The notes under the pieces: model-generated
Told to the model about the DNA's origin: nothing
The model's database searches: none
Seen by the model: only the letters and a program-made list of their open reading frames with translations
NCBI GenBank assembly: GCA_020381345.1
Contig: GCA_020381345.1_3636.1
Source of the DNA: a phage
Reading direction: 5' to 3' (one strand)
DNA length: 64,000 bases
Program-made: the position numbers and the translations under genes
Part shown: in pieces, positions 3,501 to 61,730 of the stretch
Position numbering within the stretch: position 1 is the first letter of the stretch
Layout of the letters: each line of letters opens with the position of its first letter

Positions 3501-4404
3501 AGACCTTGATGCCTACGATGGTAGCCGTGAAGGTTTCTATCACCAGGGTTCAAACGCTGACGCACTTGTAATAGATCGCCACTACCCTGCTCCGTACGCT
3601 GGTACACTGCTTGTTTACAAAAACACAGCTAACAGACCTCAAGGTTGTGTGCAGGAATATATCACCTATTTTGGTGACAGATATACTCGTGCTGGTAACT
3701 ACGTTGGCGATGTCTTTACTTGGGAAGAATGGAGACACGATGCTGGTAAGGGCATTCAGTTAAGACCTAATTACACTTTCGGTGAAACCAGTACTCAACT
3801 GGAAATTCATGTCGGTGCTAATGGTCTTCCCTCCAACGCAGATGGCTTACCCAAGGATGATGCTGTACTCCATTATTGGGGTAACGGCAGCACAGGGGAT
3901 CGTCCAAACGTGTTAGAGTTTAAGGTTCGTGACGAGTCTCAAGCAAATTGGGTATGGCATTGCGGTACCTTGCCGGATAAATCAAGATATCTTTCTGTAA
4001 ACGGTGCTGTGAATTGCACATCTGTCAATCAGAGTTCTGACAGAGACCTGAAAGATAACATAGCTGTTATTCCTGATGCGTTAGAAGCTATCCGGAAGAT
4101 GAAGGGTTATACTTACACTCTTAAAGAGAACGGTATGCCTTATGCAGGTGTTATAGCACAAGAAGTGCTTGAAGCGCTGCCGGAAGCAGTTAGCTCTTTC
4201 GTGCAAAGAAAGGAAATCCCAAACCCTGATCAAGATGGAACTCCTTTGATAACAGAGGAAAGATTCTACAGCGTGGATTACGCAGCCGTAACAGGCTTGC
4301 TTGTCCAGGTTTGCAGGGAACAGGACGATAAAATAACCGCCCTTGAGGAGCAGGTTAAAAAATTGACAGAGGTTGTTACTGGGTTGCAAGAGAAACTGAA
4401 GTAA
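592..4404 (+). CDS. tail fibre/tailspike protein with C-terminal intramolecular chaperone (peptidase S74-like) domain
   Basis: RBS AGGAGA 7 nt upstream; 1270 aa; C-terminal ~120 aa (SSDRDLKDNIAVIP...GYTYTLKENGMPYAGVIAQEV...coiled coil) matches the autoproteolytic chaperone domain seen at the C-terminus of endosialidases and L-shaped tail fibres; rho-independent terminator follows. Confidence 0.7.
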   Translation: MADIKVVRIESLPATTAVTEDDYLVVQQPDLTRRVKIGDVVHVDGTVSHVISFKEGGKLNGPMDFAYFEEEDLYLRWKGEFPHTVPALSSPYADGGITDAAWMVYTDPSLREELESTIGASMIMTAEGQSVQDVMDVTVQTANDAKALAQRVDFGTVHTVGDVIHLDNFVGPAVIEEGRTTNYPSVAAGEKFLNGVVSRRDTTTVDGIFRGATSGAMYTISVTNGVATTKRIALRDEFKRLEANNPTRTVIRAGDDLNTAGYLQLDATGRWGMWNQQTASWQPLAIEQGGTGARDAAGVRINIGAFYKQRAALEPNFNINNLTGNQDGVYYQPMTAYATEANGYPAGSGAGHLIVWQNNANGGTGCRQEYYPFSNVDVWYLRTYQANTNQWTAWQPMVRPRNDDTFRAHIGLGPRNTPTFGHIYLSQSSADVKSASGIVNGDKYSADGVLEHGYRIYSEVRNDNKAWLTIHLHKGAKGSETHRYLGFREDGVLDCPKYMQVGDLTGQLTNWGLGEWIRSSGAERGFWGSKKAAKMVVWDGGMDESGNGTLEWGVYNNRKAKWEPLPQAAGGTGATTLADAQNLFKVPVAAGVKDFLTLPRTAGMEDGKYYPIIVRTDPYYASTTGTDITIVTRSSSGNDPMNCATLQCHYRTGGWTDRGDSFQGVINFYQNEKAILGCIAPTRGRQEYVAFYVESRAFPVSVYASRNVLEVFTRENDWQVGNVTNNQDGVKFCAPLASDNLSLAIKGDDVTNTRPLAEFRGTSGFYTGGATGWHYVGTPDRMVLMSKTEMPPVEMWYNGLNYICPGSQTTRKALFSNAGFQAASEGTEDLINNTFTSKCGNGARLQGQAEFRSTPEAGQVIVRDIVGTAHRFYNFNKDGTFSAPGGFVCHTGADWNNQFGPNNPSKIMAGNVNGPEGSMVVGGLSVAFSGNYAFQMAGRLDQLYTRSIEQGNHRAWNKVIQHRGQGLGTEDLDAYDGSREGFYHQGSNADALVIDRHYPAPYAGTLLVYKNTANRPQGCVQEYITYFGDRYTRAGNYVGDVFTWEEWRHDAGKGIQLRPNYTFGETSTQLEIHVGANGLPSNADGLPKDDAVLHYWGNGSTGDRPNVLEFKVRDESQANWVWHCGTLPDKSRYLSVNGAVNCTSVNQSSDRDLKDNIAVIPDALEAIRKMKGYTYTLKENGMPYAGVIAQEVLEALPEAVSSFVQRKEIPNPDQDGTPLITEERFYSVDYAAVTGLLVQVCREQDDKITALEEQVKKLTEVVTGLQEKLK

Positions 4405-4411
4405 CTGTTTT

Positions 4412-17435: not shown

Positions 17436-19181
17436 ATGGCGCAAGACATGACAAGCTTTGAGCAGGCGGTAGATCAAGTAATTGTTGATTCTGAACGTTT
17501 GCACTTGGTTGTCAACGGCAACGCTGTGGATGAAGTTGTCGTAGAGGATGGAACCACCATCCCTACGGTACGAAAAGCCATGCTTGACAACCTTTATTTT
17601 AAAACGCCACCGATCCCTTGGGCGTATGGTGCATCCACAACAGTTTTTAACCAGCTGTACGAGTTTAAAGGAGATACAGGTCCTCAGTGGTGGTACGCTC
17701 CCGCAGCATCAAAATCTAACCCTGTTAGAATGCCAGCAGATCCTTCACAATCTCCAAACTGGAGATTATATACCGACTCTGCAGTAATGGCAAAATACTA
17801 CGCAAAACTTAACAGCCCTAGGTTCGAAGGTGACCCGCGAGTACCTACACCTCCAATGGACGATAAGTCAGAGTCCATAGCAAACACAGAGTTTGTTGTT
17901 GACTATGTTGATAGCATATTTAAAGCCATGGAGGGGATGAAAGTTACTGTAGGGTCTTTGGTGGTAAAAGGTCTTACAGAACTCGCTAACACCATAGTCG
18001 GTGGCACCCTCACCTTACATGGGCCTGTTAATGGAGCAGATTCTACTGCACGCTTCAGGAATCTAATCCTCACGGCAAATACTTCTACACTTACTTTTGC
18101 GTGGAGCGATCCTAAGCATGCAGACTGGAGAAGCACAGAGCTGCAACCTCATGAAGTGTCCACCCACAGGATTATAGCTGACACTATAACTTCTGGGAAA
18201 CCAGTGGCTAATAATAACGATGTGCATTTTGATGGTCTAGGTAATAACTTTTTTGACTACGTGTACATTCGTGGTAATGCCATGAAGGCAGCAACCGAAC
18301 CGACATTACAGGTTGATGGGACCACCAGGGTTAAGAACCTTGAGGTGACAGGTACTGTTACAGGGATAACCTACTCTGTCGATGGCACCATGATCTACCC
18401 TAGCTATATTGAAAGCACGGGTGACGCATTAATAAATGGTGATTTGGAGGTTGGTGGATCTGTAGTTATTCGAGGTACAGCCTCTATCCAAAACATAGCT
18501 CTGAATACCTTAAGAGTTAATGAGCGTGCAACTTTTGAAGGAGAAGGGCTTACAGCTAATAAAGGTACAATTACCGAGCTGACAACCACCACTTTAACTG
18601 CAACAACTACAAACTCTGAAAACTGCAACGTTACCCGAAACTTGCAGGTAAATGGAGATGTTAGTTTAAACGCAGCAGGTACGGGCACCACCTACCTTCA
18701 CAACCTTGAAATATCCGGCACAGTGACTGGGTGGCTGCCAGACTTCTCTAATGTCAACTTTGTTTGTAATGGCATTAACTCCAGCGGTAAGATAACCACC
18801 TCTCAAGAAATTGAGGCTGGTAAAACCATTACTGCCCCTACTTTCCACGCAGGAAAGGTAGATTTTGATTTAGAGGAGGTTGACGCGTCCAGTGGGACAT
18901 GGACACCTAACGGGCAGGCCAGTATGTATGTTGTCCACGCTAAAGGGGATTTTACAATAGGGCAGTGGCCTGGTACATCAGCGGAAGATAAACCTTATCC
19001 ATTCACTGCAGTTATCTATGTCATTCAGGATGCTGTAGGTCACAACGTGACTTTGCACGATAAGTATGCTATCCTGTCGGCAACACCTGTTATTAACAAC
19101 AAGGCTAACAGTGTTACCCTGCTGCAATTAACATATTGTGGTGTTGGTGATATCGTAGACGTAGTAATTGCACAACGTTAA
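17436..19181 (+). CDS. tail fibre / receptor-binding protein
   Basis: AAGGAG RBS; 581 aa; Thr/Gly/Asn-rich repetitive beta-type sequence typical of fibres; terminator follows. Confidence 0.5.
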   Translation: MAQDMTSFEQAVDQVIVDSERLHLVVNGNAVDEVVVEDGTTIPTVRKAMLDNLYFKTPPIPWAYGASTTVFNQLYEFKGDTGPQWWYAPAASKSNPVRMPADPSQSPNWRLYTDSAVMAKYYAKLNSPRFEGDPRVPTPPMDDKSESIANTEFVVDYVDSIFKAMEGMKVTVGSLVVKGLTELANTIVGGTLTLHGPVNGADSTARFRNLILTANTSTLTFAWSDPKHADWRSTELQPHEVSTHRIIADTITSGKPVANNNDVHFDGLGNNFFDYVYIRGNAMKAATEPTLQVDGTTRVKNLEVTGTVTGITYSVDGTMIYPSYIESTGDALINGDLEVGGSVVIRGTASIQNIALNTLRVNERATFEGEGLTANKGTITELTTTTLTATTTNSENCNVTRNLQVNGDVSLNAAGTGTTYLHNLEISGTVTGWLPDFSNVNFVCNGINSSGKITTSQEIEAGKTITAPTFHAGKVDFDLEEVDASSGTWTPNGQASMYVVHAKGDFTIGQWPGTSAEDKPYPFTAVIYVIQDAVGHNVTLHDKYAILSATPVINNKANSVTLLQLTYCGVGDIVDVVIAQR

Positions 19182-19188
19182 TATATCT

Positions 19189-19217
19189 AACCGCTCCTGA
19201 CGGGGCGGTTTTCTTAT
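19189..19217 (+). terminator. rho-independent terminator
   Basis: AACCGC...GCGGTT hairpin then TTTCTT. Confidence 0.5.
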
Positions 19218-19254
19218 CTGGAGAACACAATGCTTCCAATCCCTTTGCTAAAAC

Positions 19255-22200
19255 TTGGTCGTCATTTCCTCGATAAGAGGGGGTGGAATTAAGGAACTTG
19301 CTGTTCTGTCATACCCAATAGACAACAGTGATGGCACAAGCACTACAGTATCCTATGTAAATAGCTTAGCTATACTTTTTGATGATGGTCAGCTTAATAT
19401 CACGGGCTATAACAGGTTCGGGGAGTGCCGCACTGGGGATCTTGACACGATAAACTATCCCAACGAGGCTGCCTGGAACGTTGATCATGTGTGGAGAGCA
19501 GACCGTGCGTTTGTGATCCGAACTTTTGATAACCAGTTTTTCTACATCGGCTGCACTGCAGGACTTATTGGGTCGGATGCTGCAGGCGGTAATGATGTTT
19601 GTGTAAGAGAGTGGACACCTCTTCCTGAACAGATCGTTAAAGGGTTGCACCTTGACACCCACCCAGAGCGCCTTATTGAGGTGATGGGTGGTATTAACAA
19701 CACGGTCTGGGTTATTGCAGAGGCAGAAGGCACTGGCATACTTAACCTGTATGGGTCTGGTAACAACACCTACGGATCTTTACATGTAGATAAAAATCAG
19801 CATGCAACCCCTGTAAAGATTGGTGAGACATCGGAAAATCCTGAAACAGGCCCTTGGAAAAACCCAAGCATCAACTGTGAGGTGCATGACAACTCTGTTA
19901 TTTTCGGTGGTCCTAGGGGTTTCTGGGTTGCTGGACACGACTTTCTGAGAAATAACAGTAGAAACGACCTTGTTTGGCCTCCTGTGCAGATTACTCGTAA
20001 CGATTTGAGAGGCATTCCTGCAGATGAGGAGTGGAAAGGGTTTATGTGTGGTCCTAACGGGGCAGTAATTGCTACACAGAGGATGCATAGACCCGATGAC
20101 CAGCAGCTTGTTAACGTATTTTATGGTCAAAACATTTGGGGAGATGATACATGGCGGGAACTGAATATCACCTACACCCATGAGGTAATGATGGCTCGTG
20201 GGTACGGCACAAGTGGCATTTTCTTCAATAATGGCACTAAGCAGTACCGTGGGTTCTCTCGCAACTTATGTAATGATATTGGTGCACAATCTGCAAACAA
20301 TAGTCCTAGGGCCGATTTTATCCACTATCAAGCTCTTGCTACAGCTAAATATGTTGAGCAACGCCTGCCAGTCAGCTGGACAGAGAGTGTTTATTTCCAA
20401 GGCATCCACAGAGAAGGTTTCTTAGGGACCTTTACTGTTGTTAATGGTAAACTTTGGTGGTCAGGTATCCCAAGGGGAAGTTTTACAGGCTCTAATAACC
20501 TGTTTGGCGGCAGACTTAATAGTCAGGGGTTCACAGAGGTTCCTGAGAATTGGTATAAAAATGTCCCAGTAGACAGTTGGGGCGTTGATGATATTTTCGA
20601 CGTTAATGGTGTTAGCAGTGTTAGCAATATCTACATTGGTGACACGGTCAAGATGAAATTGAAGCCTCAGCCAGAGGGAGCTACGTTCATCATTGACAAG
20701 ATTGAACTGGTGAATGCTGCAGGTACGGTTGTTACAGATGCAAATTACCAATTCTCCACCAACTGGAACCACGGCGGGGCCAACGAAGTTGTTGTTACCC
20801 AGTATAACAGAAATGTTAACAGACGTGGCCTGTACTCTGTAAAAATAACCTATCATGACAAGCATGGCACAGGCAGAACTCACACGACAAGGACTTTGAA
20901 CTGGAACACCATAGTTCCTGCGTATCCGTCCAACGGCAAGTGGCATACCGTTGGTAGAAACAAGCAGTTCCATGTTAACGATACTGTATACTTTGGGCTG
21001 AATGGGACCCAGCCTGCAGTAGAAGGGGATACATCGTATATGGTCAGACTCCACAGAATGGATGCTGAATCAGTCACTTATGATGTGACCCAAGAGATCT
21101 ACGATCAAAGACGCGCCACGTATGACAATATTGTAAAAACACAAGCCTTGTGGGAGTTCAATCCTAATGGCAAGGGTGGTAAAATGTTGCAGGTTAATGA
21201 GCAGAACGGAACGTCGTTGACTGTTCACGAACACCCAGACCCTTGGCCTGATCCTGGAAAACCTCACCCGGGAGCTCGTACACTGAAAATTGTCAGCCAT
21301 GATGCAGGATATTTCGGAATACGCTGGGAAGCTACAGTAAGATATGTCGACGGGACAACAAACAACATAGGGATTACACTTGGCGGCACTAGTGAAGATA
21401 ACTCGCTGAAAATTGCCTACACGCCCAGAGGTATCTCTATTGATAATATGGATGTTGTTCGCAATGGTTACGGCGATGTGAATGTCAAAGTTACTCTTGG
21501 CGAACATCTTGGTGGGGAAAGGATCATCATGTATGCCTTTGATCATGATCCACGCACCAATGGAACTTATGCAAATCAGGCATGGAGTTACCTGATAAAT
21601 GCACCTGAGCCGAATACTAAAGAGTTCTACTATGGTATGAAGCGAGATGTGTGCAAGAAAACAGGAACACATGACTGGATTGCTATCTGCGTTAAAGATG
21701 AGCGCACAGCTTGGGATGAGCCTGTTAACAGATGGTTCATAGGTATTCCTACCAGAAGTGATAAGTATGTCGCAGAATATATTGTATGCATGGGCGGTAC
21801 CAACCTAAACATGTGTTGGAACGAAGATGTAAACAAATACTCTGATTATGACTATATGAGGGATTACTCTTGTAATTTGTGGTTTAACCAAACTACAGGT
21901 TACCCTCCGCGTCAGGCAAGGGTAAATCCTGCAATCTTTACAGATACGCAGGTTTTCTTGACAAAACAGGCCAACGAGGTTCAGACCTTCAAGAATAACT
22001 ATGACCCTAACAAATGGTTCTATAATTGTTACGGAGCATACTTTTGGGGGCCTGCTGAACTGCCTGACAGCGGTTCTTGCTTCGAGGCTGCAACCTACGG
22101 CAGCGACTATATTATGGGACAGGTCAAGAAGTACAAGATGATCCCAGGGCCTGAAACTTTAGGTAACGCTGTTGACCCATACATAAATTTCGCAGCTTTG

Positions 22201-24858
22201 CATGCGAATATGGATGGTGCAAGGTATCCGTTCGACGTTCCAGTTGCCAATGGGTACAGACGTGTCGTGATGATTATTAAATGCGATCTGATCGGAAAGC
22301 AAGTTCTTGCAGAAAACGGAACATCCACACATCCTTTTGAAGTTGCTCTGCACTACCAGTTTGCAGACTCACCATATGCGGGAGATAAAAGAATCTCCGA
22401 CACAGACTCTAAGCGCTGTAAGAAAGTTTTACTTGGAGCCGGGTGGTGGTGGTACGAGTTTGATTTAACAGATAAGTTCACAGATGATACCAAAACTCTC
22501 ACAGGTATCCGTCTGGACCTTGGTGAGGACATGCACAAAGCTGTTTGTGATGGCACCTACGGTGATCCTACAGTATACTTGAAGTATGTCTCTCTTGAGC
22601 ATCCAGAGGATGCCGTAATCGGTCCTAAACTGAAATTGTTCGGCTCATGGATTGCCGAGGATAGAGTAGGAATGGGTAAGAAAGTGAGAGGATTCCTGAT
22701 AGACGCAGGGACAGAGGACATGCTGGTTAATGCAGTGTGGCCTACGCTAGAAGGCACTGCCTACAACAATGCAGCCAGGTCTATAAATTGGTTCAACATT
22801 CACAGAGCTATGTGGACCACTAACTGCTACTTGTGGAGAGAGCTTAACGATCAGGCCTTTGGCTTTAGTGACGGCAGAAGGATGGCGATCATTTGCTGGA
22901 CAACATTGCAAAGATGTTATGACCATGACTACGAGATTGGCGGTAGAGCATGGAAAGATATCAGAGATAGGGTTATATACAATTTTGCAGACGATAACGG
23001 TGGAGGGGCATATAACTTTGGCACAAGCCGACTTATCCACTTGAACGGATCTTCAGCCTACAAGAAAGAAGGTTACTCTGGGTCCATGATCGAGTGGGGT
23101 CTGGTGAAAGATGCTCGTGTATTGATGGGCCAGCAACTTGCTGCTGCAATAGGGCCTAGTGCAGTGCAGTCTGCTAAACCAGCGTGGTTCGATATCCCAT
23201 TATGGTCCTCTGGAACACCAGGAGCTGCTGCAATCAACCCTACCACTGGGGATCTGGAAATCTCCTGGGAAGACCTGAAGCAGGTCGGTGGCTGGGATAA
23301 GACCGGGTACCAGGTGCAGTGGTGGAGGGCTGACGGATCTTTAGCCGCTGATGAGTTTGTTAAGGACAATTTCTACACCATGTCCTCTGCAAAAGCACAG
23401 GAATTGTTCGGTCAGGCAACTCCGTCAACGATCACCATGTCTATGTGCTGTAAAGACAACAGGACTGGAGCTTTGGGGCCAAGGGTTGCTAAGGTTTTCT
23501 CAGGTATTAAATGGAATCCCTCTGTTCAAAGTGTTTCATGGAAGCAAATAGGTGATAACAAGCTGCTAGTTACCCCAGCCTGTCAGTTCAACGCAACTCT
23601 TAACGTTGATCCTGCTGCTGCGGCAAACTCAGCTAAAGCTTCTGACTTCTCTGTGTCTAACACTGCTATGGCAGATGTGAGGAAGATTGACACGCTGAAC
23701 GCCAGAATTACCTGTAAAAACACTTATGGCACATTCCAGATCATCAACAACTTCACAGATGCTGATTCTAAGGTAGTGAGGACAGCAAGCCAGACTCTGA
23801 GTTTAGGAACTCTGGCCTATGCGGCACTGATCACCGAACAGTCGGCAACACTCCAAGGAGGCGGTGTAGGCAAGTCCATTGCAACACCTGTGTGGAAGCC
23901 GAATGAGTGGGTTGTGTTTGATTTGACTGTGGACTTCTCCAGTGATAATAACTGGACATGGGTAAGGAATTGTTTGTCACAGTTGATGGGCGGTCCAAGC
24001 TCCATTAGCGATAGTCACGACTCTACTGACCCGAGCGTGTTCCAGGTGGGTAAAACTCACCCAGAGACTGGAGAAACGTTGCCTGACAGGAAGTATGCTT
24101 TGGTTTGCATCTCCAACGGCAAGGCAGATGTCACATTCTCAGGCACACACGCTTATAACGGTACATATAACTTCTCAAGGAAGTATAGTCTCAAAGCAGG
24201 GAACATTATAGACGAGGTTGGTGTGCTGTATAATCCGGGAAACGGCATAGGGATTGTTGGTGGTAAACTGCAGATGCAGGAACCTTCTATTACCCCTTCC
24301 AACGTAGCCGGGATTAGAAAGACTTGGGAAAGTAGTAATACCAACATTGCAACAGTGGATGCCACCACAGGGCTGGTAACATTTAAAGCTACTGGGAATG
24401 TCACCATAAAGTTTGTAGTTACAGATGATGCAGGCCGCAAAACGTCTTCAACATCGTTTACTGTCAGACAGATGGCACCTCAGTGGTTTATTTGGGAAGG
24501 AAATCCTCTTGACGGGGCTTACCCTAGACCTGCAGGAACGTCCAATATGAGGGTCTTTACCGGTCCGGTCATGGACAATCCGACCACAACCACCAACCCT
24601 ACATTTTTTGGTGCTTACATACCTGAAATTATTGGCCTACCAAGGAACCAGATACAACTGCTTTTCGGAGCAGGTGTTGATGGTCTAGCCACCTTTGGGT
24701 ACAGTGACAACATCGATGCAGCCAGAAGCTCGGGCTGGATTGGATTTAAGTTCCAGTGGAACCCTGGTGGTAGAACATTAGGTCTTGCAAGTATAGGTAT
24801 TATGCTACCTGGTAACCAGCAATACCATCTCGAAGCTTATACAAACTTCCCTAGTTAA
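19255..24858 (+). CDS. giant virion-associated protein (1867 aa) with Big_2-like Ig domain; start codon uncertain
   Basis: Long uninterrupted ORF; C-terminal segment SSNTNIATVDATTGLVTFKATGNVTIKFVVTD resembles bacterial Ig-like group 2 domains; TTG start without RBS, while a well-placed ATG (19230) is in another frame; bidirectional terminator follows. Confidence 0.5.
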   Translation: MVVISSIRGGGIKELAVLSYPIDNSDGTSTTVSYVNSLAILFDDGQLNITGYNRFGECRTGDLDTINYPNEAAWNVDHVWRADRAFVIRTFDNQFFYIGCTAGLIGSDAAGGNDVCVREWTPLPEQIVKGLHLDTHPERLIEVMGGINNTVWVIAEAEGTGILNLYGSGNNTYGSLHVDKNQHATPVKIGETSENPETGPWKNPSINCEVHDNSVIFGGPRGFWVAGHDFLRNNSRNDLVWPPVQITRNDLRGIPADEEWKGFMCGPNGAVIATQRMHRPDDQQLVNVFYGQNIWGDDTWRELNITYTHEVMMARGYGTSGIFFNNGTKQYRGFSRNLCNDIGAQSANNSPRADFIHYQALATAKYVEQRLPVSWTESVYFQGIHREGFLGTFTVVNGKLWWSGIPRGSFTGSNNLFGGRLNSQGFTEVPENWYKNVPVDSWGVDDIFDVNGVSSVSNIYIGDTVKMKLKPQPEGATFIIDKIELVNAAGTVVTDANYQFSTNWNHGGANEVVVTQYNRNVNRRGLYSVKITYHDKHGTGRTHTTRTLNWNTIVPAYPSNGKWHTVGRNKQFHVNDTVYFGLNGTQPAVEGDTSYMVRLHRMDAESVTYDVTQEIYDQRRATYDNIVKTQALWEFNPNGKGGKMLQVNEQNGTSLTVHEHPDPWPDPGKPHPGARTLKIVSHDAGYFGIRWEATVRYVDGTTNNIGITLGGTSEDNSLKIAYTPRGISIDNMDVVRNGYGDVNVKVTLGEHLGGERIIMYAFDHDPRTNGTYANQAWSYLINAPEPNTKEFYYGMKRDVCKKTGTHDWIAICVKDERTAWDEPVNRWFIGIPTRSDKYVAEYIVCMGGTNLNMCWNEDVNKYSDYDYMRDYSCNLWFNQTTGYPPRQARVNPAIFTDTQVFLTKQANEVQTFKNNYDPNKWFYNCYGAYFWGPAELPDSGSCFEAATYGSDYIMGQVKKYKMIPGPETLGNAVDPYINFAALHANMDGARYPFDVPVANGYRRVVMIIKCDLIGKQVLAENGTSTHPFEVALHYQFADSPYAGDKRISDTDSKRCKKVLLGAGWWWYEFDLTDKFTDDTKTLTGIRLDLGEDMHKAVCDGTYGDPTVYLKYVSLEHPEDAVIGPKLKLFGSWIAEDRVGMGKKVRGFLIDAGTEDMLVNAVWPTLEGTAYNNAARSINWFNIHRAMWTTNCYLWRELNDQAFGFSDGRRMAIICWTTLQRCYDHDYEIGGRAWKDIRDRVIYNFADDNGGGAYNFGTSRLIHLNGSSAYKKEGYSGSMIEWGLVKDARVLMGQQLAAAIGPSAVQSAKPAWFDIPLWSSGTPGAAAINPTTGDLEISWEDLKQVGGWDKTGYQVQWWRADGSLAADEFVKDNFYTMSSAKAQELFGQATPSTITMSMCCKDNRTGALGPRVAKVFSGIKWNPSVQSVSWKQIGDNKLLVTPACQFNATLNVDPAAAANSAKASDFSVSNTAMADVRKIDTLNARITCKNTYGTFQIINNFTDADSKVVRTASQTLSLGTLAYAALITEQSATLQGGGVGKSIATPVWKPNEWVVFDLTVDFSSDNNWTWVRNCLSQLMGGPSSISDSHDSTDPSVFQVGKTHPETGETLPDRKYALVCISNGKADVTFSGTHAYNGTYNFSRKYSLKAGNIIDEVGVLYNPGNGIGIVGGKLQMQEPSITPSNVAGIRKTWESSNTNIATVDATTGLVTFKATGNVTIKFVVTDDAGRKTSSTSFTVRQMAPQWFIWEGNPLDGAYPRPAGTSNMRVFTGPVMDNPTTTTNPTFFGAYIPEIIGLPRNQIQLLFGAGVDGLATFGYSDNIDAARSSGWIGFKFQWNPGGRTLGLASIGIMLPGNQQYHLEAYTNFPS

Positions 24859-46778: not shown

Positions 46779-49202
46779 ATGAGCATGTGGTCGTTCGATT
46801 TTGAGTCATCCGGTTTACTGGAAGACCCAGATCTTTATTATCACTGCGGTCTGTTTAAAGAGCTGAATAAGAACCGTTTTATGCTGTTCCTTCCTCTAAA
46901 TGACCGCACACACTACTCCGAGGAGGATATAGAAAAGGCTAAGAACTTCATTCTGGCAAAGAAAACTCTTTATAAAGATTTTGAAGTTCGCATAGCAGAT
47001 TTTTCGGAGTTGGAAGGTTGGCTTACAGGCAATTCCGACTGGTCACCAACAGCTTTGAACTGCCATAACTGCTACAGTTATGACTTTATGCTGATGGAAA
47101 GATTATCCGGTATTCATTTTGACATGTTCCGTGATCCTAAATGCATGGGGACTATCAACGACCACCAGGTTAACCTGTTTGATACGTTGGCGATGAGTCG
47201 AATCTTGTGGCCTGATCGCCCTTTACCAAAAGGTTGTCCGGACTCTGTATTCAACCCGGTCACTAAGAAAATGCAGCCTGTTGGTCCTCACGGCCTTATG
47301 GCATGGGGCTATGCTCTTGGTAACCAGAAAGTTCAAATTGATGACTGGCGCGATCTTCCGTTGTGGAAGTATGTGGATCGTGTATTTGAGGACGTTATCA
47401 TCCAGGAGCTGCTCTGGAAAGAACTGGTAGCGGAATCAAAAGGTGTATTCTACGGCAAGTCTGACATGCAGAACTTTATGTACGATCCTGCCAAAGAGAA
47501 GCCAAAAGGGTTCAAGAAGATCACCTGGAAGAACGCATTACGCCGAGGCATGCTGCAGCACTTCCTGATGGAGCTGCAGGCCCGTCAGGGTGTGTATTTC
47601 GACATAGACGGGGCTATTGCTTTACGTGACCGCTGTGATGCGTGGATGAAAGAGATCGCTGATCGTGTTGAACCTCAACTTCCTTTAAAAGAGTTATCAA
47701 TATCTCAGCGGCCTAAATTCCCTGAAAAGCCGTTCAACCAAGATGGGACAATTTCCAATAATGGCTGGAAATGGTTAAAAGATAAGCTTGGCTATCCTGT
47801 AGATATGAGCGCTTTAGAGTTCAAAGCCCCGCCTAAGCGAGCATTTACCTCCACAGGAGATGTCAGTAAGATGGGGATAAAATGGTGTGAAGAGATGGGC
47901 TGCAAAGACCCCGATAAGATGGCTGATTTCTTGAGAGGCTATATTAAGGGCACCTCAACACCACAACCTTTACCTAAAGAGCTAATGGATCAGGCAATAA
48001 GTGATCTACAGCAGAAGCGAATGCCGGACTGCAAGATACCTATGAAAATCAGCAATCAGGACGACATTAAGCGATACCTGATCAGTGCTGGTTGGCTTCC
48101 GACAATGTGGAGAACTAAGGATGTAACTAAAGACAGCAAGAAGAAAGCTCTACCTGATGCAGATGTTGATGCACGAGTATATGCATATATGGACGAGCTT
48201 TTAGAGTCAGAGTATTGTGACCTGATTATCAACTTCTGGAACAAAACTGATGCTAAGTTCCAGACAACCGTGCACAAGTTCCGAAGCTTTCCTAACTCCG
48301 AAAGGATTAAAAAGGAAGTATTCGGGAAAATACGTAGAAAAGCCAGGGCACTTATTACTTCTCCGCAACTGAAAGATACGTTTGGACACCTATGTCCGAA
48401 TCTTGAAAAATTGAACGGAGAGATGGCTAAAGATATCGTCTTGTGGTTATCATTGCGAAACCGCAGATCGGTCCTTGATCCAATCAAGGAGGATAAGGTT
48501 GATACTGGTCTTCTTAATCACCCACGCTTGAAGATTGACCATAAGCTTCCTGCTAAAAGTTCTGGGCTAACAAACACTTCCAGACAGAAACACAGTATTT
48601 GTGCAAACATGCCTAAACCATCTCCTAAAGTGGTTATGGGTAAAGAGATGCGTAGTCTATGGGGTGTTCCTCCGGGATACTTTGAGATCGGTATTGACGG
48701 GTCCAACTTAGAGCAGCTTATCGGAGCTTGGGGTGCCTTTGAGTTCGACAACGGCTTGTATTATGATGTTGTAAGTAACGGGGACGCACACCAAAACAAT
48801 GCTGAGGCATATACAAAAGTAGCAGGTAGAGAGGTGTCTCGTAACGACGGTAAACCTATCACGTATGGGGTTATGTACGGGGCACAAAAAGATAAAGTTG
48901 CAGACATGCTGGATATCTCTCCAGAGTTGGGACAAAGGGTAATCGATGCACTCTGGGATGCCAACCCTGGTCTTAAGGGGCGCAAAGAGGATCTGGAGAA
49001 ATTCTGGGAAGCAACAGGTAAGAAGTTTATCTACTCTTTTGATGGTCATGCTATCTGGACCCGATCTAAACACTCTTTACTTAATGCATACCAACAGAAT
49101 GGTGGTGCATCGCTGTGTGACTTAGTTGGGATACTCATGCACCACCAAATGGTGAAGCGTGGGTGGTACGATGAAGGTGTTCGTCGTATTATTTATTACC
49201 AT
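46779..49202 (+). CDS. DNA polymerase, family A (T7 gp5-like), exon 1
   Basis: Exo I FDFESSG, Exo II-like NCHNCYSYD, motif A EIGIDGSNLE, motif B KPITYGVMYGAQ; ORF stops 1 codon after the His of motif C (..IIYYH K stop). Confidence 0.7.
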
Positions 49203-49478
49203 AAATAACATTGTGGCTTCATAGAGTAATCTATGTCGAATAACCTCTTTAACTGCGGGAAGCCTAAACCTTATGGCAAGGTAATCCGCAACGAAGCGCT
49301 CAAAAGAGCGAACGCTCAGAGGCCATTCCGAAAGGAAGTAGACCAGCAAGTGCGGTCGAAATGGGAGGATTCCTGTGGTTGCTTATCATAGGAATATGAG
49401 ATGGTCCGATCCTACGTGAAAACGTATGGCTATGCACGTAATGGTGCGGGGTAGCTTAACGACCTACCTGAACTATTG
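49203..49478 (+). ncRNA. group I self-splicing intron (no ORF) interrupting DNA polymerase motif C
   Basis: P-like AACTGCGGGAAG (49251), Q-like AATCCGCAAC (49283), R-like GCTCAGAGGCC (49314) in canonical order; P/Q complementary; upstream exon ends in T, intron ends in G; three in-frame stops; joining exons restores ..YYHDEYQLQV (H-D-E motif C). Confidence 0.6.
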
Positions 49479-49832
49479 GATGAGTACCAACTTCAGGTCC
49501 CTGACACACCTAAGTATAAGACTGTGTACACCTTCGACACAATTGAAGAACTGGAAGCATTTAAGGCAGAGCAGGAAGCCAAACTTCATGTGTTCGACGG
49601 TCATAAGTACAAAAAGGCACGCAAGGATGAAAACGGAAACGAGGTGGTTGACAGAGACGGAAACACGGTGTACGATCCTATCCTGAACGATGACGGAAAG
49701 CTTGAACTTATCTGGAGCCCTGTGGGCGAGATGGTGGTACATTGCTTCTGGCAAGCTTCTAAAATGATGGGAGTCCCGTTCCAGATCACAGGTGAATACT
49801 TGTGTGGTCGTAACTGGGGTGATTGTCACTAA
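49479..49832 (+). CDS. DNA polymerase, family A, exon 2 (C-terminal segment)
   Basis: Same frame as exon 1; begins GAT GAG (D-E of HDE); C-terminus ..CGRNWGDCH resembles T7 pol C-terminus ..GPNWAICH. Confidence 0.6.
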   Translation, partial: DEYQLQVPDTPKYKTVYTFDTIEELEAFKAEQEAKLHVFDGHKYKKARKDENGNEVVDRDGNTVYDPILNDDGKLELIWSPVGEMVVHCFWQASKMMGVPFQITGEYLCGRNWGDCH

Positions 49833-58650: not shown

Positions 58651-58742
58651 TTCAAAAAATTTTTCTAACCTGATGCGCTAACCGCTGCAACCTGGCGGGG
58701 GCGGCAGGTGGATTCTATCATAAAAATAATTTAAAATAGTCG

Positions 58743-61580: not shown

Positions 61581-61702
61581 CTATCCTATGAATAGCGCCC
61601 CTGGTTGGCCCCACAACGCCCTAAAGGCCCCCTGCCCATGCAATCCCCTTTCTTAACCTGAAAACATCGTCAAAGGCTGTTTTAAAGCGTTAAAAAATAT
61701 TG

Positions 61703-61730
61703 TTGACATCTAAAAATACTCTAGATATAC
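61703..61730 (+). promoter_or_regulatory. sigma70-like promoter (early)
   Basis: TTGACA-16-TATACT. Confidence 0.5.

Follow-up and report, generated by a model that had tools for sequence, protein, structure and literature searches.

The question raised by this locus is how, if at all, a 5.6-kb open reading frame (ORF) is translated when the only well-placed start codon in front of it lies in another frame. The window, by which is meant the whole 64-kb stretch of DNA that was analysed, was identified as belonging to a Vequintavirus (rV5-like coliphage). Right after a terminator, an ATG at 19230 with a GGAG ribosome-binding site opens a frame of only 20 codons, which stops at 19290 and has the predicted product MLPIPLLKLGRHFLDKRGWN. 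The long ORF is in the +1 frame, is bounded upstream by a TAA at 19249 and ends at 24858. Its first ATG, GTG or TTG codon is the TTG at 19255, from which it has 1867 codons, and no purine-rich stretch or Shine-Dalgarno sequence precedes this TTG. A run of five G residues (19279-19283) lies inside the overlap of the two frames. A sequence-only reading of the window had described this arrangement and had proposed a homopolymer sequencing indel, a programmed +1 frameshift or a weak TTG start to account for it; the arrangement itself was confirmed at every position, and a hairpin was found where the terminator was expected (Table 1). The same site is marked as a terminator in the annotations of phages Murica and Alma, and it lies between the ortholog of gp28 (the upstream fibre gene, 17436-19181) and the long ORF.

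The long ORF was identified by homology as the ortholog of rV5 gp27, a 'lateral tail fiber protein with intimin domain'. The phrog_15684 profile matches the long frame with 4351 bits across profile positions 18-1877 of 1878, and residues 16-1875 of JeffSchatz bas55_0041 match the window at 96.2% identity by tblastn. Against the rV5 gp27-type relatives as a group, protein identity is 90-98% over residues 18-1875. The gene occupies the same position in the locus as rV5 gp27 (rv5_gp027, YP_002003529.1), BASEL bas55_0041 of JeffSchatz and phrog_15684, and the genes in the window follow the same order as in JeffSchatz, rV5 and Murica: a gp28-type fibre gene is followed by the terminator and then by the gp27 ortholog, which closes the fibre locus and is the largest of the lateral tail-fibre genes in Vequintavirus phages. 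A Big_2/intimin-like domain is found near the C-terminus of both the window protein and its relatives. The Big_2-like domain suggested earlier corresponds to a Pfam match (PF02368) at residues 1683-1733 of the repaired protein (E = 8.8e-8), and intimin 1e5u gives a weak match to the same fibre protein. The protein had also been thought unusually large for a fibre module, a view that does not hold for this family, in which 1875-1878 aa is the normal size of the gp27-type proteins and the phrog_15684 profile is 1878 positions long. The rV5 proteomics paper and its supplements make no mention of gp27.

Table 1. Features of the start region and fibre gene, in window coordinates.
Feature	Position	Strand	Details or basis
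Terminator-like hairpin, followed by a T-rich tail	19189-19210	+	9 pairs, 6 of them G-C, loop of 4; sequence identical in relatives
Shine-Dalgarno GGAG of the assigned ancestral start	19220-19223	+	6 nt 5' of the ATG; ribosome_binding_site in the Murica annotation
Assigned ancestral ATG (19230-19232) and first 17 codons, now a 20-codon ORF	19230-19292	+	TAA at 19290-19292
Candidate slip site AGG-GGG-U	19278-19284	+	only plausible +1 slip site; predicted
G5 run, one G above the G4 of relatives, at codon 17/18	19279-19283	+	alignments
Intact body of the gp27-type fibre gene (1858 codons and a stop codon), shifted +1 with respect to its own ATG	19282-24858	+	phrog_15684, tblastn, Big_2
In-frame ATT overlapping the TAA of the short ORF, after the GAGGGGG stretch	19288-19290	+	list of in-frame near-cognate starts; predicted

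Unlike rV5 gp27, the window copy carries an additional G at codon 17/18, which leaves the start codon and the first 17 codons out of frame with the body. In all relatives inspected (including Murica, EmilHeitz, Phage 203, JeffSchatz and rV5 gp027) the annotated CDS start maps to window position 19230, and the equivalent ATG reads in frame through the entire gene. Orthologs from three genera (including Phapecoctavirus and Seunavirus) share an invariant N-terminus, M[L/F]PIP, and 17 positions of the phrog_15684 profile precede the point at which the window's long frame joins it. Based on the annotated starts, the invariant N-terminus and these 17 positions, ATG 19230 is assigned as the ancestral start. 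Furthermore, an N-terminal module of ~90-200 residues is kept in phages where the distal part of the protein has been swapped (V18, nepoznato and FENT2). In the window the frame from the conserved ATG (MLPIP...) is not uninterrupted, as it ends at codon 21; when G4 is restored, ATG 19230 reads through the entire gene. The locus is accordingly classed, by sequence comparison, as a frameshifted allele of the rV5 gp27-type family.

The state of the G run was surveyed among relatives. G4 is present at this site in 114 of 115 phage records (97 + 17) and in four metagenome or virome contigs, giving 118 other sequences with G4, and G5 occurs outside the window's lineage in none of the 115 records and none of the four contigs. 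Variable-gap pattern scans produced one match in IMG/VR and two in metagenomes, all of them G4, and no match in GTDB genomes. Compared with every other sequence found, the insertion is exactly one G added to the G4 run at codon 17/18. Between 19180 and 19340 the window is otherwise identical to its relatives save for one substitution, with neither a compensating second indel nor a new upstream start. With the relatives reading from the equivalent of ATG 19230 and showing G4 where the window has G5, conserved programmed frameshifting can be ruled out, as can phase variation and the TTG as the genuine start.

The locus is best explained by a real and recent insertion of a single G, specific to this lineage, that turns G4 into G5 at codon 17/18 and abolishes or weakens a dispensable rV5 gp27-type fibre, and we consider this explanation probable. 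On this reading the insertion is an ordinary frameshift mutation, not programmed recoding. Ribosomes would load at the conserved GGAG/ATG (19220/19230) and stop after 20 codons, and the 1858-codon body would be left without a start signal of its own. As a result of this early stop and the missing signal, the fibre would be lost or made in small amounts only. Residual product could arise by re-initiation near the stop (at ATT 19288 or TTG 19255) and would then lack the conserved MLPIP N-terminus, with the ATT product missing the first 19 residues; alternatively, an occasional +1 slip at AGG-GGG would yield wild-type protein. These predictions of what protein, if any, the G5 allele makes are drawn from the sequence. 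The phage would tolerate such a lesion because it can grow on at least some hosts without this fibre.

The alternative that survives best is that the phage truly has G4 and that a homopolymer overcall put the additional G into the consensus, which we regard as unlikely while giving it some weight. A change of one base in the length of a homopolymer is the classic type of error, all 118 other sequences have G4 and the remainder of the gene is perfectly intact. In addition, the exact repaired protein is absent from a collection of 15 billion proteins, which leaves this allele with no G4 counterpart for comparison. Against an overcall, G5 recurs in the Logan assemblies of runs SRR3210523 and SRR3210517, both 100% identical to the window over the 15.7 kb and 9.2 kb compared, respectively; the runs are separate and were compared as assemblies, but they may stem from one laboratory stock, which leaves formal room for a systematic homopolymer overcall. 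The 1867-aa protein called from the TTG is also present under two NCBI accessions, EIH8243935.1 and EIH8276021.1, in records labelled E. coli. A four-base run is short for a consensus-level error. When ~85 JeffSchatz genes were mapped on the window, the gp27 ortholog alone was broken by a frameshifting indel, despite the 131 G or C runs of 4-6 bases (15 of them 5-6) that the mapped genes hold, and an error-prone assembly was rejected on the basis of this whole-window comparison. Because G5 recurs in the assemblies of two runs and in two NCBI accessions, and no other conserved gene is broken, the extra G probably reflects biology and not the sequencing platform. Of the homopolymer sequencing indel proposed earlier, the indel stands, being one extra G relative to all other sequences, whereas its origin in sequencing is less likely than a real mutation. 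The gene body itself has no stops in 1858 codons and is ~96-98% identical to relatives; its undecayed state would fit a very recent mutation, but is just as compatible with an artefact or with continued expression.

Searches for the window gave no match in complete E. coli genomes and only a 92.7% relative in plasmids, and no papers were found that contain the accessions SRR3210523 or SRR3210517. The interruption of the DNA polymerase gene in the window is due to a group I intron and not to a frameshifting indel.

Two further possibilities invoke a +1 slip at the AGG-GGG-U site. In the first, the G5 allele would not be null, as slippage could supply enough wild-type fibre if few copies per virion are needed. 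We give this a slim chance; if it were so, the one-base insertion would attenuate, at the level of translation, a determinant of host range. An allied possibility is that the E. coli isolates carrying the phage would have selected for loss of this fibre. In the second, programmed or otherwise efficient +1 frameshifting at 19278-19284 would connect ATG 19230 to the full-length fibre, and this appears slightly less probable still. A slip from AGG to GGG would permit good re-pairing of the P-site tRNA-Arg, the next +1 codon, GGU, is the commonest glycine codon here (40% of Gly codons, compared with 20% for GGG), and decoding of GGU GGA AUU after the slip would restore exactly the wild-type ...DKRGGIKEL. 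The undecayed gene body is also consistent with continued translation in this way. However, the two-frame layout is found in none of the 118 relatives, and since it is absent from every other member of the family an evolved recoding signal is excluded. No stimulatory RNA structure was detected downstream of the slip site (z = 0.03), an Rfam search at the locus gave no match, and AGG is not especially rare in the phage (6.4 per 1000 codons). The G-run survey and the lack of both RNA structure and Rfam match led to the rejection of conserved programmed frameshifting, and the suggestion made from the sequence at first sight is not upheld.

Known efficient +1 sites, those of the prfB type, rely both on a stop or starved codon and on a Shine-Dalgarno sequence at a precise distance upstream. 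The window does resemble prfB (release factor 2) in that a +1 shift would be required shortly 5' of an in-frame stop, and in having a purine-rich, Shine-Dalgarno-like stretch, AAGAGGGGG, at the site. It differs from prfB in that the layout is conserved in no homolog and the candidate slip site lies away from the stop codon.

The least probable of the alternatives is that the long ORF is translated alone, from TTG 19255 or ATT 19288, into a functional fibre with an altered or shorter N-terminus; we consider this very doubtful. The TTG is the first canonical start of the open frame and was the choice of the automatic annotation (1867 aa), and the ATT, placed 4-7 nt past GAGGGGG and overlapping the stop of the short ORF, has a layout that could support weak re-initiation. 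The TTG, however, has no Shine-Dalgarno sequence and sits within a short ORF expected to be initiated efficiently, and ATT is a very poor start codon. The N-terminus that would be lost is invariant across the three genera and belongs to the N-terminal module described above, and the family profile extends 17 residues further upstream, all of which argues against the TTG as the true start. Products of internal initiation would be expected to begin with (M/I)KELAVLSYPIDNSDGTSTTVSYVNSLAILFDDGQLNITGYNR or MVVISSIR.

A phase-variable (contingency) G tract was rejected, as G4 is found in 118 sequences and G5 in a single clonal lineage, and the tract of 4-5 bases is below the ~8 bases or more expected of a contingency locus. 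In Campylobacter phages, hypermutable poly-G tracts in receptor-binding genes give phase variation, and the window resembles these loci in that a change in the length of a G run puts the gene of a receptor-binding protein out of frame; it differs from them in having only 4-5 bases and an invariant G4 in the 118 other sequences.

The most probable reading, a recent insertion that disables or weakens the fibre, agrees with what is seen for this gene elsewhere: at least some hosts support phage growth when the gp27-type fibre is missing. According to the HIDEN-SEQ preprint (10.1101/2025.11.20.689424), transposon insertions in bas54_0041 are tolerated on E. coli K-12, and lateral tail-fibre genes become conditionally essential when the hosts are clinical isolates. 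Based on locus-tag numbering, which is conserved in Bas49, Bas55 and Bas58, bas54_0041 is the likely ortholog of the window gene.

The public annotation of the protein (1867 aa from the TTG, EIH8243935.1 and EIH8276021.1) very probably has the wrong N-terminus, and describes a frameshifted rV5 gp27 allele. The value of this observation is mostly practical; it reveals no new recoding mechanism. If such phages are used for therapy or typing, the state of this gene is worth checking as it may alter host range.

The window adds one more case to a pattern in which the largest Vequintavirus lateral tail-fibre gene is repeatedly broken in sequenced isolates, which agrees with the transposon-sequencing results: dispensable on E. 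coli K-12, with fibre genes conditionally needed elsewhere. The gp27-type gene has been broken independently in at least six other relatives: JES2013 (11-nt deletion, codon ~44), ERR3870166 (4-nt deletion, codon ~63), YP-6 (+1 T, codon ~398), magaca (stop, codon 617), EPFV3-03/2025 (10-nt deletion, codon ~1274) and APECc02 (+1 A and a 2.9-kb deletion). As in the window, these are independent disruptive lesions of the same fibre gene in phage genomes that are otherwise intact. Each of the six differs in site and type, and the lesion in the window is the only one in the G run and the nearest to the start. As a control for gene-specific breakage, the neighbouring 1199-aa fibre/J-like gene was used in tblastn and was unbroken in all of ~20 Vequintavirus records, a weak control in that matches were swamped by distant homologs and ~20 records are too few to compare rates. 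In ERR3870166 and APECc02, the genes upstream of the broken gp27-type gene are intact.

The window derives from a Vequintavirus, i.e. an rV5-like E. coli myovirus, and shares ~96% identity with Phage 203/206 as well as with BASEL phages, among them JeffSchatz (Bas55), the relative used for gene mapping. Its long ORF is orthologous to rV5 gp27 (rv5_gp027), labelled 'lateral tail fiber protein with intimin domain' in the BASEL genomes, and aligns with positions 18-1877 of the 1878-position profile of phrog_15684, the PHROG family of this fibre. The sequence-only reading had called the product unusually large for a fibre module; the gp27-type protein, in which a Big_2 domain spans residues 1683-1733, is 1875-1878 aa in relatives, and the size is ordinary in the family. 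The locus is a frameshifted allele of an already known gene family and no new system.

Features of the start region of the gp27-type gene
Feature	Position	Remark	Basis
Terminator hairpin	19189-19210		sequence
Shine-Dalgarno GGAG	19220-19223		sequence
ATG	19230	opens 20-codon frame	
20-codon frame MLPIPLLKLGRHFLDKRGWN	from ATG 19230 to TAA 19290		sequence
Long ORF, 1867 codons	to 24858	+1 frame; opens past TAA 19249; TTG 19255 is the first ATG/GTG/TTG codon	
Run of five G (G5)	19279-19283	within overlap of short and long frames	

The earlier description of this region, from terminator to G5 run, agrees with the sequence, in which no Shine-Dalgarno motif is found for TTG 19255. The gp27-type CDS starts at the counterpart of ATG 19230 in every relative inspected (Murica, EmilHeitz, Phage 203, JeffSchatz, HeinrichReichert, JohannBauhin, AlexBoehm, MaxTheCat, rV5, YP-6, EPFV3 and magaca), and the Murica record carries an annotated RBS and terminator there. 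At the N-terminus, M-[L/F]-P-I-P does not vary in the Phapecoctavirus (nepoznato) and Seunavirus (FENT2) orthologs, which are about 36-43% identical across the N-terminal region; V18 keeps the N-terminal 90 residues with a different distal part of the protein, and 17 positions of the phrog_15684 profile precede the point at which the long frame of the window joins it. On sequence comparison, these three observations establish ATG 19230 as the ancestral start and show the N-terminus to be under functional constraint, and the suggested weak start at TTG 19255 is therefore unsupported.

One difference matters in the alignment: the window has G5 at codon 17/18 where relatives have four G (G4), with which the gene is a single frame reading MLPIPLLKLGRHFLDKRGGIKEL... 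The site was surveyed by exact-word searches of phage records with two flank variants; the G4 34-mer matched 97 records with the first flank (GGAATT) and 17 with the second (GGAGTT), and the G5 35-mer matched 0 with either. G4 is thus found in 114 of the 115 phage records matching the region. A pattern allowing any run length matched one IMG/VR contig and two metagenome contigs, each with G4, and had no match in GTDB genomes.

The extra G is probably a real mutation, as G5 is present in two sequencing runs and under two NCBI accessions and the window is otherwise clean. Exact-protein look-ups led to Logan assemblies of two different runs, SRR3210523 (131-kb contig) and SRR3210517, whose 15.7 kb and 9.2 kb of compared sequence, respectively, match the window at 100% identity, G5 included. 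NCBI likewise has two accessions, both labelled Escherichia coli, for the 1867-aa protein called from the TTG; the contig that encodes it is 138 kb long. Furthermore, no other gene among the ~85 JeffSchatz genes mapped onto the window is broken by a frameshifting indel (the DNA polymerase gene is split by a group I intron), and G or C runs of 4-6 bases occur 131 times in this mapped set. An artefact is consequently unlikely, although a systematic platform error may be common to both runs. The sequence-only reading was therefore right in proposing a homopolymer indel, but its origin is probably mutation and not sequencing. In public annotation, window 19255-24858 is taken for an intact gene, whose 1867-aa product starts at TTG and is named 'Ig-like domain-containing protein [Escherichia coli]' (EIH8243935.1 / EIH8276021.1); the E. 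coli isolate assemblies hold the phage genome as a ~138-kb contig, which could reflect a carrier state or contamination. Nearly all surveyed records have G4 and none has G5, which excludes phase variation of the G tract as well as a conserved programmed frameshift; the programmed +1 frameshift proposed earlier is unsupported, and the sequence 3' of the site has no unusual RNA structure (z = 0.03) and there is no Rfam match.

With the extra G taken as a mutation, ribosomes would load at GGAG/ATG 19230 and terminate at TAA 19290, and the fibre would be absent or scarce because the gene body lacks a separate start signal. Two leaks are conceivable. Re-initiation could occur at ATT 19288, which overlaps the short-frame stop 4-7 nt 3' of GAGGGGG, and would give a product without the conserved N-terminus; alternatively, a putative +1 slip of tRNA-Arg from AGG (19278-19280) to GGG, followed by GGU GGA AUU, would give the exact wild-type ...DKRGGIKEL. 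The intact gene body fits a recent event.

Independent breaks in the gp27-type gene are present in at least six other genomes, at a different site each time: JES2013 (11-nt deletion, codon ~44), ERR3870166 (4-nt deletion, codon ~63, and +1 C, codon ~1448), YP-6 (+1 T, codon ~398), magaca (stop at codon 617), EPFV3-03/2025 (10-nt deletion, codon ~1274) and APECc02 (+1 A, codon ~115, and a 2.9-kb internal deletion). The neighbouring upstream genes are intact in ERR3870166 and APECc02. In Alma, whose assembly has many split genes, one nucleotide is deleted at codon ~209. The independent lesions suggest that the fibre is under relaxed or negative selection during propagation. A preprint on transposon sequencing of the Vequintavirus Bas54 reports that, on E. 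coli K-12, insertions are tolerated in several fibre genes, bas54_0041 among them, and that lateral tail-fibre genes are conditionally essential on particular clinical isolates (10.1101/2025.11.20.689424). We infer that bas54_0041 is the ortholog of the gene studied here, as locus-tag numbering matches in Bas49, Bas55 and Bas58; on that footing the phage could grow without this fibre on at least some hosts.

Elsewhere in the window, the DNA polymerase gene (46779-49832) is interrupted by a ~276-nt insertion (49193-49478) absent from JeffSchatz, in which Rfam finds a group I catalytic intron (RF00028, 64.7 bits, E = 3e-16, 49193-49428) containing no ORF; exon 1 meets a stop codon (49206-49208), with the frame picking up again at ~49479. 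At 3738-4407, the C-terminal part of the bas55_0026 ortholog (a large lateral tail-fibre gene) and the following small bas55_0027 are unmatched in JeffSchatz, an apparent allelic exchange at the fibre tip. The small early genes at 57 to 64 kb are the most indel-rich region relative to JeffSchatz, and two segments are missing from the window, the small ORF bas55_0101 and 20 nt of intergenic sequence (58660-58720 and 61700-61725). Among related records, PLSDB CP057073.1 (137,565 bp), entered as a non-mobilizable 'plasmid' of E. coli from pooled cattle faeces, is a Vequintavirus 92.7% identical to the window over a 1.5-kb query. The MG0656xx series (e.g. MG065644, MG065690) comprises 15-18 unannotated 'Campylobacter phage ...' records with C. 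jejuni as stated host; across 25 kb their identity to this E. coli Vequintavirus is 93-95%, and they are probably mislabelled or contaminant genomes.
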